A stretch of 64,000 bases of DNA from Phycisphaerae bacterium. GTDB taxonomy: Bacteria > Planctomycetota > Phycisphaerae > UBA1845 > Fen-1342. Under the pieces are notes generated by a model. It saw only the letters and a program-made list of their open reading frames with translations. It had not been told where the DNA came from and did not search any database. Shown here in pieces: positions 1 to 4,051 of this stretch. The position numbers and the translations under genes were made by a program. The DNA is taken from positions 64,001-128,000 of the forward strand of contig JASFQK010000001.1 in assembly GCA_050115495.1 (NCBI GenBank), in the 5' to 3' direction. The first letter of the stretch is position 1; every line of letters starts with the position of its first letter.

Positions 1-264
1 GGCGGCCCGCAGCCTTACGAATAACCAGTGACTGAACATCGCAACCCTCGAGCTCCGGTCACCACGACGGGACGGACCGCATTCTAGCCGCAAACGTCGG
101 CCGCCCGGCCCAACGCCCCGCCCTGGGCGCGGCCTGTGTCCGGCACAGACGTATTCACCCGCAACGGGCGGTTATTCACGCATTCCCCCCCACGCGGGGC
201 CAATGGCCGCTTGGTCCACTCCAGGTGCCAGAACCTGCCCAGTGCGAAAGAGAATGGTGCCTGC

Positions 265-390
265 ATGTCAAGTAACACCGTGGTCATCGAGTTGCTGCAG
301 ATTCTGACGCAGCCCTGTGAGTACGTCACCCTGGGGGTCGAGGAACAGACATGTCCTCGCCTCTCAGATCGGCTGCCGGCGGGCAGCTGA
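265..390 (+). CDS. Small peptide A1 (41 aa), paralog of 1117..1197
   Basis: MSSNTVVIELLQILTQPCEYVTLGVEEQTCPRLSDRLPAGS; 12 of 18 core residues identical to the peptide at 1117; GTG at 280 is an alternative start. Confidence 0.5.
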   Translation: MSSNTVVIELLQILTQPCEYVTLGVEEQTCPRLSDRLPAGS

Positions 391-569
391 CCGCAGCATA
401 TGGTAGTTCAGGCCTACCCATCCCCATTTAGTAGTACATGCCGTCCGGCCGACGCGCAAAAACTGCGCGACCAGCGATCGCGGTTGACAAACGCTTATCA
501 CCGACCGGTAAAAGGTCGATGCCCTGGATGTGGCGCACGGATTGCGCTGGCGAAAGTCGGAGTCATGCC

Positions 570-920
570 ATGAGATCCGCCCACGCTTGGTACCTGCTCT
601 TCGCCGCCCTGCTGTTGCTGGGCGTGCTGGCGGTCCTGCTCATCGGCCTCGGTATCCTGCGCAGCCCGGCGGAGACACGTTGGATCGGCGTCGCACTCGT
701 GCCGGTGATCGGCCTGGTCGTGAAACTGCTCGGCCAGGAGTTCCAGCGCTTGGGCGAACGACGGCGTCCCCTGAGCCCCCCACAACCCCCGCCCGTCCCA
801 ACTTTCCGTTCTGACGAGCGCAATCTTTGCGCCGCGCCCGGCGCAACGCAGCGAGAAGAACCGCCCGCGCCAAGCCCGCCGCAAACAAACCTCCAGGATC
901 CTTACCCATTGCTCCAGTGA
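570..920 (+). CDS. Small two-TM membrane protein with Pro-rich tail, hypothetical
   Basis: ATG 570 in the 438..920 ORF; hydrophobic WYLLFAALLLLGVLAVLLIGLGIL and WIGVALVPVIGLVVKLL; GGAG just upstream. Confidence 0.6.
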   Translation: MRSAHAWYLLFAALLLLGVLAVLLIGLGILRSPAETRWIGVALVPVIGLVVKLLGQEFQRLGERRRPLSPPQPPPVPTFRSDERNLCAAPGATQREEPPAPSPPQTNLQDPYPLLQ

Positions 921-1116
921 CCGCGATAATCGCAAGGTTCTGCAAAATAGAGATTTACGCTCCAGATTGTGTCGCAAAGCCAGAAACGCGATACCGCGCG
1001 GAAATAATCTCTCGATTGCCTCAAGCCACACTCACACTCAACCGATGTCCAATGCCAGCCAACCGCGCCCGTACCGTTTCTTTGGTGGAGTTTTCGAGAG
1101 AAGCGGAGGCTGCAGG

Positions 1117-1197
1117 ATGTTGCCCTGGTGGTTGTGGGAACTCCTCAGAACACTGTCCCAGATGTGCGATTACGTATGCCTGGGGGTGGAGCTCTAG
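1117..1197 (+). CDS. Small peptide A2 (26 aa), paralog of 265..390
   Basis: MLPWWLWELLRTLSQMCDYVCLGVEL; GGAGG ribosome-binding site upstream of the ATG. Confidence 0.55.
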   Translation: MLPWWLWELLRTLSQMCDYVCLGVEL

Positions 1198-1199
1198 CC

Positions 1200-1316
1200 A
1201 TGGACGGCTGGCCGCTCGAAACCTGTTTCTCGCCTCGTGAGCAGCGGTGGGGCCGCTACATGGAAACCGCCATGTGGCTGGTTAGCGCAGCCTTGTTGGC
1301 AGCCCTCTTCGCCTGA
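1200..1316 (+). CDS. Small single-TM peptide (38 aa), hypothetical
   Basis: MDGWPLETCFSPREQRWGRYMETAMWLVSAALLAALFA; starts 2 nt after the A2 stop, with GGAG inside the end of A2. Confidence 0.4.
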   Translation: MDGWPLETCFSPREQRWGRYMETAMWLVSAALLAALFA

Positions 1317-1388: not shown

Positions 1389-3779
1389 TCACCCGCCGGG
1401 CGCATTCGCCCCCCGGGATCTTTCATCCCTCTTCCCGCCGGCCAGCAGCGTGCTAGACGCAGCCTCGCCGTCGGCGAGCCAGACCGGTCCGGGCCCCAAC
1501 TGCATCTGCCGCACGCGCAACGCGTTGACCAGGTACACCACACTCCCGCTCACCAGCAGCGTCCCCAGCGCCAGGAACACGTGCACCTGCCACAGCGCGA
1601 CCGACCAGCGCGCCCCCAGCGCCACCGTCACGATACCCCCGGCCAGCGCCAACAGACACACGCCCCCCAGCAACCGCCGCGGCCATGTCGGTGCCGCCGG
1701 CAGTAGCCCCACCAGCACCGCCGCCAACGCCGCCCACAGCACGATCGTCGCCCCCAGCATCTTCCACTCGATCTTTCCCTGCGACGCCCCGCCCAGCAGC
1801 GCCCGCAGCGCCTGCACGTGCACTTCACACCCGTAGACCCCCTCGCCTGCCGCTGTCCGGTAGTAGTCCATCAGCGGCAGCGTGTGCCCCACCAGCACCA
1901 CCTGCCCCGCAAACCACCGCCGCACCTGTTCATCGTCCGCGGCGAGCACTTGCTCCAGCGACAGTCGGCGCGTCGCCTCCGGCGGTCCCGGGTCGATCCG
2001 CACGTGCATCCGGTACACGACGTCACCCGCCCGCAACATGCCGTCGCCCGAATTCCGGCCGATCCGGTCGACCTCCCATACGGGAATGCGGTCGGTGCCC
2101 GTGTGCCAGCGCTGTTCGCCCCGGGCCACCTGCCGCTTCCGGTAGCTGAGCATGACCTCCCCCGGCTCCACGTTCAGTTGCAGCGCCGCGTCCGGATAGC
2201 GGGCCGCCGCGAAACCGGCCACGGCCAGCCCCGGGACCGGTGGAGCCAATCCGCGCGACACGCACACCGGCACGATCCACTCGTGGCCGCGCTCGTCCGG
2301 ATCCGCGGACAGCAGCGTCCCCCAGCTATGCACGCGCGAGCGAATCTCCGCGCACATCACCGGCTCGCTGTTCAGATCAATCTCACGCGTCCCCATCACC
2401 ACCGGCACACCGCTGTTCCGCAACGCATCCAGACCGCGCAACAACTCCGCGTCGTAATCCGGCTTGCACTGCGGCAGGAAGTAGTCGCAGATGACCACCT
2501 GCGGCTGCACCGTGGCCAGCCGCTGCAAGAGCAGGCCGAGCACCACTCGCCACGTGCCCGAGTCCCTCGCCTTCATCCCCGCCGCCTGCTCGATCTCCCC
2601 GCGCGCCAGCGTCTCGATCGTCCCCGGCGTGAACGCCACCAGCGAGATCGGCGGCACGTCCACCGCCGCCCCGAACCAGCGCGCCTCTGCCCGCCAGGCC
2701 AGCACCGTCAGCAGCACGGACACGACCATCACCAGGAAGACGCGCACCGCCAGCGGCCGCGTGCGCAGCACGTACGACGCCGACCGCGCCAGTTGATAGC
2801 CGAGCGTCGGATTGCGATATGCGCGAATGACCCGCCCGGCGAGGTAATGGTCGAGATCGTCGATGAGCTCGGCGCAGTTGGCGTAACGCTGCTCGGGCAA
2901 GGGGGCCACGCAACGGCTGATGATCGCCGCCAGATCCTCGGCCCGGGCCACACCACGAGCCTGCAGCGTCCGCAGCAGCCGGTCCGGCCACGTGGCCAGC
3001 CGGGCCGCCTCCCCGGTCACGCAGTGGTACAGCAGCGCCCCCAGGGCGTAGACATCCGCCCGCCCGTCCACGTTCTCACCTGCCATCTGCTCCGGCGCGA
3101 TGTAGCCCAGCGTGCCCAGCGCCCCCTCAGACACCGGCATCGGCGTGCGCTGCGCGTCGTCACGCAGCTTCAGCCGAGTGGCGATGCCGAAATCGAGAAT
3201 GTGCGGCTCGCCATCCGCATCAATGAGAATGTTCTGCGGCTTGATGTCGCGGTGCACGACGCCCTGGGCATGGGCGTAGCCCACGGCGGCGGCCACCGTC
3301 TTGATCAGCTCTATGCGCTTCGCCAGCGACAAATGCCGCCGGCGGATGTGCTGGTCCAGTTGCTCGCCGGCCACGAAGTCCATCGTGTAGTACAGCGGCG
3401 GCTTGCCCAGATGGGCCTCGTACAGCGTGGCGATGTTCGGGTGCCGCAGCCGGGCGATCAGGTGCACCTCGTTCTGGAAGTAGCGGGCCCGCACCGGCGT
3501 CTTGCCGAAGAGAATCTTCAGCGCCTCGGTCCGCTGCTTGGCATGGTGCACGACCTTGTAAACCACCCCGAACCCCCCCTCACCGATCCGCTCCACCACC
3601 GTGTAGTGGGGCAGACGCGGCAGCCGACCGAGCGTCGCCTCGCGATAGCGCCGCCGGCAGGCGTCACACGTCTCAAGGTGCTCCTGGGCCTCCTCGTGCT
3701 CGCGGCCCGCCAGGGTCCCGTGCACCAGGCTGTCGGTCACCGCGTCCCGCGGGCAGCGCTGGCCCAACCGTTCCATCAT
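1389..3779 (-). CDS. Membrane Ser/Thr protein kinase with N-terminal zf-HC2-like motif and C-terminal CHASE2-like sensor domain
   Basis: HLETCDACR; kinase motifs IGEGGFGVVY, ALK, HRDIKPQN, DFG, GTLGYIAPE; TM; CHASE2-like VVICDYFL...DAELL and GQVVLVG...YGCEVH; three C-terminal TMs. Confidence 0.85.
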   Translation of the reverse strand: MMERLGQRCPRDAVTDSLVHGTLAGREHEEAQEHLETCDACRRRYREATLGRLPRLPHYTVVERIGEGGFGVVYKVVHHAKQRTEALKILFGKTPVRARYFQNEVHLIARLRHPNIATLYEAHLGKPPLYYTMDFVAGEQLDQHIRRRHLSLAKRIELIKTVAAAVGYAHAQGVVHRDIKPQNILIDADGEPHILDFGIATRLKLRDDAQRTPMPVSEGALGTLGYIAPEQMAGENVDGRADVYALGALLYHCVTGEAARLATWPDRLLRTLQARGVARAEDLAAIISRCVAPLPEQRYANCAELIDDLDHYLAGRVIRAYRNPTLGYQLARSASYVLRTRPLAVRVFLVMVVSVLLTVLAWRAEARWFGAAVDVPPISLVAFTPGTIETLARGEIEQAAGMKARDSGTWRVVLGLLLQRLATVQPQVVICDYFLPQCKPDYDAELLRGLDALRNSGVPVVMGTREIDLNSEPVMCAEIRSRVHSWGTLLSADPDERGHEWIVPVCVSRGLAPPVPGLAVAGFAAARYPDAALQLNVEPGEVMLSYRKRQVARGEQRWHTGTDRIPVWEVDRIGRNSGDGMLRAGDVVYRMHVRIDPGPPEATRRLSLEQVLAADDEQVRRWFAGQVVLVGHTLPLMDYYRTAAGEGVYGCEVHVQALRALLGGASQGKIEWKMLGATIVLWAALAAVLVGLLPAAPTWPRRLLGGVCLLALAGGIVTVALGARWSVALWQVHVFLALGTLLVSGSVVYLVNALRVRQMQLGPGPVWLADGEAASSTLLAGGKRDERSRGANAPGG

Positions 3780-4051
3780 CACGCACTCTGACGATGAAGG
3801 CCGCCGCCGGCGTCCGCGCCGCGCGGCCGGACTCGCAACAACCATTCTAGACCCCCGCCCCAACCTTTGCACGCCCGCCACCGCCGCGCGCATCTTCTCT
3901 TGAAATCGCCGCCGGCGATTCGGTACAATCGCCGCATGGCGCGAGAATCGCGCTGAGAGCCACCTCTTTCGGGTCTTTGGCCTACCGCAAGCAGCGATCA
4001 TTCCGGCATCGCTTGCGAGTGACCTGCCCATCCCCAAGTCAGGAACACAGA

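Follow-up and report, generated by a model that had tools for sequence, protein, structure and literature searches.

The window analysed here is a stretch of 64,000 nucleotides from a Phycisphaerae bacterium, and its left end hosts two small coding sequences, called A and B, lodged between a divergent FHA-domain gene and a convergent kinase gene. The features of the region are the following, in window coordinates.

1-39, minus strand: start of the divergent FHA-domain gene, followed by a Ser/Thr kinase gene outside the window
265-390, plus strand: upstream paralog of A (41 aa) that keeps the core but has lost the conserved Trp, with a Pro in the helix and a tail of 15 aa
570-920, plus strand: near-orphan two-helix membrane ORF, outside the conserved A/B module
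1020-1048, plus strand: predicted sigma28 (FliA/WhiG)-type promoter; -35 box at 1020-1025, 15-nt spacer, -10 box at 1041-1048
1066-1440, strand not assigned: stretch under one RNA-library contig (run X1), which spans A and B with no differences
1105-1109, plus strand: Shine-Dalgarno sequence of peptide A, GGAGG inside a purine-rich leader conserved in the family
1117-1197, plus strand: peptide A, syntenic copy, 26 aa (52-sequence family alignment A3)
1200-1316, plus strand: peptide B, 38 aa, a short polar N-terminus followed by one membrane helix (alignment A4)
1389-3845 (start putative), minus strand: convergent gene for a zf-HC2 / Ser-Thr kinase / CHASE2 membrane sensor (Pfam), the candidate target

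The first-pass annotation of this DNA had singled out the ORFs 265-390 and 1117-1197 as paralogous peptides shaped by selection. Re-reading of the sequence confirmed the coordinates of both, the identity of the 18-residue cores at 12 positions, the use of different codons at 6 of the 12 identical residues (the same list was obtained), and the GGAGG ribosome-binding site of the second peptide, located at 1105-1109. The selection claimed is borne out by the cores (pS 0.72, pN 0.25; Fisher P=0.003), in which synonymous sites are near saturation and non-synonymous sites are not. An A profile built solely from 50 sequences not derived from the window assigns 38.4 and 20.5 bits to the two window copies. 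The pS/pN contrast and the recognition of both copies by a window-free profile indicate that the likeness is real, and results from selection on the peptide. No further occurrence of the A core motif was found in the 5.97-Mb genome. The expectation that gene callers would miss both peptides was right for 1117-1197, which is absent from the called-protein collection, and wrong for 265-390, which is present there together with 570-920 and 1200-1316. The annotation was correct in proposing an unannotated, conserved small-protein family, which is documented below by profiles, loci and substitution rates. It was mistaken in giving the two copies equal rank, and in taking the cysteine of the shared motif as a family feature, as any Cys occurs in just 9 of 52 A peptides. 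The supposed repetition of a peptide followed by a membrane ORF does not hold either, since ORF 570-920 bears no relation to B, and neither the sigma28 promoter nor the partner accompanies 265-390. Overlooked in the annotation were the standing of 1200-1316 as the obligate, conserved partner of A, and the sigma28-type promoter of the operon. The B profile gave no match to ORF 570-920, for which a protein search returned one outside relative (84% identity over 53% of the length) and the 71 family genomes one weak match (E 0.002).

A peptides range from 22 to 32 aa in the 52 sequences aligned. All carry a negative net charge (mean -2.3), the hydrophobic moment is 0.63, and the amphipathic pattern is kept over the full length; A is predicted to form an anionic amphipathic helix, and has no signal peptide. 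Residues conserved among the A peptides are W, E, Y, V, L, G and E. The C-terminus conforms to [LM]-G-x-E-x-stop, with the Gly found in 51/52 and the Glu in 44/52 peptides, and the stop codon falls one residue past the Glu in most members; the same last four residues recur at 21 of 59 loci. B proteins are 38-59 aa long, and share one membrane helix and conserved Glu, Trp and Trp positions; a 19-aa segment exceeding 1.6 on the Kyte-Doolittle scale is present in 49 of 52 members. Pooled over 9 close pairs, dN/dS is 0.29 for A (P 1e-6) and 0.16 for B (P 2e-19), values indicative of purifying selection on both. Judging from these sequence features, 1117-1197 is the functional, syntenic copy of A. 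In the window B starts 2 nt past the stop of A, and the distance between the two ranges from -4 to +13 nt at 59/59 loci counted, and is 1-4 nt at 46 of them, a spacing that fits translational coupling. ORF 1200-1316 is the conserved partner of A, and the unit is a two-gene operon. The window B stops at TGA 1314-1316, where most members have a conserved Trp and a short tail; the B peptides of G018, G034 and G031 (C10) end at the same place. Profile comparisons revealed no homology between A and B, or between B and the first membrane helix of the kinase (probability 0.8%).

The unit was found by reading the DNA beyond the orthologs of the convergent zf-HC2/protein kinase/CHASE2 gene, and its distribution was determined by searching the complete set of 72 family genomes with profiles and inspecting the loci. 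Adjacent, intact A+B pairs reside in 59 of the 72 genomes (58 plus G052), and A and/or B, mostly in single copy, in 66. G082 hosts a pair with a longer gap, G066 and G067 carry A plus a degenerate B, G053 and G054 only A, and in G060 B lies at a contig edge. A frameshift fuses A to B in G001 (L017:3029-3232), where the fusion is called as a protein of 68 aa (P0058); the frameshift may be real or an assembly error. Neither A nor B was detected by these searches and inspections in G015, G033, G035, G044, G045 and G055. Weak A-profile matches in long ORFs were set aside, as the two inspected, from G055 and G044, correspond to the same unrelated housekeeping protein. We take this to be glycyl-tRNA synthetase. 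A B match in G035 was dismissed as a wrong-frame artefact. No A+B pair was found outside the family in the planctomycete genomes sampled: the A profile matched 0 of 400 genomes of the phylum, weak and partial matches to the B profile, never preceded by an A, occurred in 9 of the 329 other genomes of the class, and no A/B was found ahead of the FHA gene at 20 FHA loci of other families. At L190 and L192, from two other families, the region upstream of FHA is occupied by a co-directional gene for a membrane-anchored protein of ~290 aa, not by A/B. A search of 1.84 billion representatives with the B profile returned 131 matches, nearly all of 29-60 aa, and one homolog carries the source label Phycisphaerae bacterium; a eukaryotic repeat protein among the 131 is spurious. 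A protein of 351 aa (P0109) has a B-like segment at its start, resembling a signal peptide.

The 5-mer most enriched upstream of A is CCGAT, found in 39 of 61 regions against 9.9 expected. A two-box model, YT(C/A)AAG-N15-(G/T)CCGAT(G/A), yields leave-one-out scores above the 95th percentile of shuffles at 46/61 loci, and the window site scores 16.7 bits. As an independent check, the model finds a site upstream of 25 of 30 flagellin orthologs; the spacer of the flagellin-upstream sites is 15 in 29/30, and the A/B promoter has the same spacing as the family's own flagellin promoters. The boxes match, with equal spacing, the WhiG2 consensus T(A/C)AA-N16-GCCGATAA reported in the accessible part of PMC12871210, and are like those of the E. 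coli FliA sites given in the accessible part of PMC4183435, the A/B spacer being one base longer. Unlike A/B, none of the sigma28 regulon members in the available portions of these two reports is a two-peptide operon. By its motif, the promoter of the A/B operon is of the sigma28 type, and is kept across orthologs. The genome encodes FliA (above cut-off) and a second FliA/WhiG-like paralog. The second gene lies outside the flagellar cluster (G000:C2:27035-27844; L230/L311), and has a close ortholog in 70 of the 72 family genomes. The promoter model finds a site, mostly with a spacer of 16, upstream of 26/30 of these second genes, and a two-tier or autoregulated cascade is possible. A genome-wide count of promoter matches showed no excess at spacers 15-16, and so singled out neither a regulon nor one of the two sigma factors. 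Strong sigma28-type sites (G000:C24:60048-60974; C5:146876-147296) also lie upstream of two paralogous ORFs of ~95 aa and of one further gene, presumably, from inspection by eye, encoding a STAS anti-anti-sigma factor. TATTC is enriched as well in the intergenic regions of orthologs (26/61 regions vs 5 expected; positions 130-200 in the window), mostly at a distance of 60-125 nt ahead of the sigma28 site, and may belong to the promoter of the divergent FHA operon.

Besides the X1 contig, a contig from run X2 covers 1138-1342. RNA contigs denote presence alone and carry no information on strand, ends or level; DNA may be present in RNA libraries, and run X1 may share its source with the assembly. 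Contig depth is 108 over A+B and 2-6 nearby, though contigs cannot rank genes; 265-390 has no RNA contig cover, an absence which proves nothing. Taken jointly, the following can be regarded with high confidence as demonstrated: A and B are coding, are conserved and under selection, have a promoter of the sigma28 class, and are present in RNA libraries. A strong predicted hairpin (-41 kcal/mol, calculated without a shuffle control) spans 1340-1440, and extends over the 3' terminus of the kinase gene. The RNA contig ends at this hairpin, which might be a shared terminator.

Kinases, FHA proteins, an ECF sigma factor, TIM and SpoIIE are encoded by the conserved neighbours of A/B, among which no modifying enzyme, transporter, protease or RRNPP/Rgg regulator was found. 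Beyond the FHA gene itself, the FHA operon comprises a Ser/Thr kinase gene, joined in some relatives by one for an ECF sigma factor. At 67 A loci (one genome is counted twice, and several loci are at contig ends), both FHA and the CHASE2 kinase are adjacent in 25 cases, FHA only in 19, the kinase only in 15, and neither, within the fetched DNA, in 8. FHA adjoins A as often as the kinase does (44 vs 40 of 67), and synteny therefore does not single out the kinase. Kinase orthologs are present in 67 of the 72 family genomes; they are missing in 3 of the 6 genomes which lack A/B, against 2 of the 66 which host A and/or B (naive P 0.003), a signal weakened by linked loss, kinship and incomplete assemblies. 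G044 (96% complete) has kept FHA, and lacks both A/B and the kinase ortholog. G015 has no FHA match either, and its shared absence may thus correspond to one deletion or one assembly gap.

The reading we prefer, and hold as tentative, is that A/B are a sigma28-induced small-protein regulator of the neighbouring CHASE2 kinase, analogous to MgrB. According to this view, a sigma28-family factor would switch on the coupled A/B operon together with flagellin, late in the motile-cell programme. B would insert into the inner membrane as a single-pass protein, and A would associate with the membrane as an amphipathic helix. Through its conserved, acidic C-terminal motif, A would bind to the membrane/CHASE2 half of the neighbouring Ser/Thr kinase, altering kinase activity, with B positioning or stabilising A, and the kinase/FHA/ECF signalling cluster would be coupled in this way to the cell stage. 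In this scheme we infer the acting sigma28 paralog, the kinase binding, what B does, and the direction of the regulation. The occurrence of intact pairs, selection, the promoter, adjacency to the kinase, shared absence and the complex score reported below count for the preferred reading. The same is true of G044, and of G031, G051 and G052, which have a second kinase copy along with additional A loci; in G031 and G052 one A+B pair lies beside one of the two kinase copies. Other genomes count against it: the kinase is present, and A/B were not found, in G035 (92% complete), G033 and G045, and extra A copies are not accompanied by a second full kinase copy in G037, G078 and G079. The lack of a signal peptide, which leaves the route of A to a periplasmic domain without an explanation, likewise counts against it.

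Binding of A to the sensor half of the kinase is weakly suggested by complex prediction. The C-terminal half was modelled at pLDDT 91, and a fold search with it matched no structure in the PDB, which makes the recall of a known complex unlikely. With the G040 orthologs as three chains (the C-half of the kinase and B, with A as the partner), the predicted complex scored 0.51, against 0.00 for the best of 3 controls, among which one with the kinase replaced and B kept; such a value falls in the range (<=0.60) where, by the prediction tool's own statement, a pass is more often wrong than right unless the complex was likely beforehand. Contacts agree at >=82% among runs, and the partner pLDDT is >=58. 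The score mark is reached by 116/157 solved complexes and 2/215 mismatches, but only 18 of the 157 passed with scores <=0.60, as did both passing mismatches; a three-chain job with custom alignments moreover differs from the calibration, and the score comes without an interface. The link to the convergent CHASE2 kinase, raised as a possibility in the first-pass annotation, looks plausible in the light of synteny, shared absence and this weak score. To our knowledge, no ligand has been established for the CHASE2 sensor domain. A bolder proposal, and a doubtful one, makes A a genetically encoded CHASE2 ligand or modulator, through which, with B as a membrane helper, sigma28 would set the activity of a Ser/Thr kinase-ECF cascade according to the cell stage.

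The same data lend themselves to other explanations. The promoter class common to A/B and flagellin, and the presence of flagellin in 70 of the 72 family genomes, would also suit peptides acting not on a kinase but as accessories of a late sigma28-dependent structure or process, such as the flagellar motor or export, the pole or the swarmer envelope. Synteny would be merely historical, in line with the eight A loci, some of them at contig ends, that are flanked by neither gene within the fetched DNA. We deem this unlikely, yet worth serious consideration: flagellins are retained in G015, G035, G044 and G055, which lack A/B, flagellar clusters are not seen as conserved neighbours, and A/B are limited to one family although flagella are widespread. 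The adjacency of FHA could in turn signify that the target of A, alone or together with B, is not the CHASE2 kinase but the divergent module of FHA, Ser/Thr kinase and ECF sigma factor, and the A-only copies of G037, G051, G052, G053 and G054 all adjoin FHA. However, FHA genes occur throughout the order (138 of 151 genomes) and A/B in one family only; the 20 FHA loci of other families have no A/B, and G044 has kept FHA in their absence. Such a target is quite improbable.

Streptococcal SHP and XIP pheromones offer a further model, though their receptor is not a membrane kinase. A might be the precursor of a peptide pheromone, with its last 8-9 residues released and sensed outside the cell by CHASE2, and B aiding export or processing. 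The small size of A, the concentration of conserved residues at a free C-terminus which mostly ends one residue past the Glu, and the dependence of the weak complex score on the kinase half agree with this idea. Like the precursors of the SHP/Rgg and ComS/ComR systems, A is short and hydrophobic, and has a conserved C-terminal segment starting at an acidic residue. In contrast to them, A has an anionic rather than basic N-terminus and no Rgg-type regulator nearby, and belongs to a different phylum. As neither a transporter nor a protease is a conserved neighbour, the amphipathic pattern extends along the whole of A, and C-termini identical over many genera ill suit a species-specific signal, a pheromone is improbable. 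TisB and PSM are small amphipathic peptides as well, and the resemblance of A to them in size and amphipathicity evokes a membrane-active toxin with its antidote, of the type I toxin, PSM-like or two-peptide bacteriocin kind. This we consider highly improbable, along with a RiPP precursor. The unit is near-universal, mostly single-copy and at a fixed locus, not patchy and multicopy; A and B have no PADLOC match and, apart from one chance hit, no Rfam match, and export genes are missing nearby; an antisense RNA of a novel kind is conceivable. The RiPP-like precursor put forward in the first-pass annotation is not supported, as neither Cys nor another modifiable core residue (Ser, Thr) behind a leader is conserved and the conserved neighbours include no modifying enzymes.

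MgrB is a small membrane protein which acts on the sensor kinase PhoQ, according to the accessible part of 10.1101/2022.12.22.521624, and a membrane sensor kinase approached at the membrane/periplasm interface is what we propose for A/B too. A/B differ from MgrB-PhoQ in consisting of two peptides, in having a Hanks-type Ser/Thr kinase with CHASE2 as the candidate target, and in the sigma28-type promoter. Homology to MgrB was not detected for 11 A sequences in Pfam and 52 in NCBIfam, or for 52 B sequences in Pfam and 9 in NCBIfam. The neighbouring FHA-kinase-ECF operon fits the theme of the kinase-associated ECF groups (ECF43, ECF59-62, ECF217, ECF267 and ECF283) described in PMC7826278, the available part of which, unlike the A/B locus, features no small peptides. 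B is similar to the Streptomyces morphogenic membrane protein MmpB (PF26627), a single-helix protein of ~42 aa, with an Atlas feature score of 0.81, a level reached by shuffled proteins a third of the time. The MmpB profile did not match B in NCBIfam or Pfam, though the Pfam copy may predate PF26627. This lead excepted, A and B returned nothing consistent in Pfam, NCBIfam, PADLOC, Rfam and Atlas, and no description of them was found in literature searches mostly restricted to papers free of subscription, without supplements. A and B are new families, and their action is likely a variant of known small-protein regulation. Near-universal in one family of Phycisphaerae, they add two entries to the catalogue of small proteins, and the shorter A peptides escape gene callers. 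In this lineage a sigma28 promoter class is conserved, and a second paralog of sigma28 itself bears a promoter of this class. If A does bind the CHASE2 kinase, it would serve as an inexpensive synthetic probe of the signals to which CHASE2 domains respond, and would exemplify a bacterial Ser/Thr kinase controlled by a small protein in connection with the motile stage.

The upstream copy at 265-390 has no sigma28 promoter (score 1.9), no good sigma70 site upstream, and no B. CAG 346-348 and ATG 351 align in register with the A stop codon and the B start codon, respectively, and the DNA past ATG 351 bears no likeness to B; the stop codon has plausibly been lost. A comparable upstream duplicate of A, without stop and B, is found in G079. 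A decaying duplicate is the somewhat better bet for 265-390. Yet, intact A-only copies reside beside FHA in G037, G051, G052, G053 and G054, and leave room for a working A-only variant, which has a reasonable though lesser chance of being the case. Sigma70-like sites with 9-11/12 matches precede the A-only copies G051:C117, G052:C4, G053:C87 and G054:C12, two of which have no sigma28 site; >=9/12 matches are also found at 10 of 64 other loci. A split into constitutive A-only copies and stage-specific A+B copies is possible.
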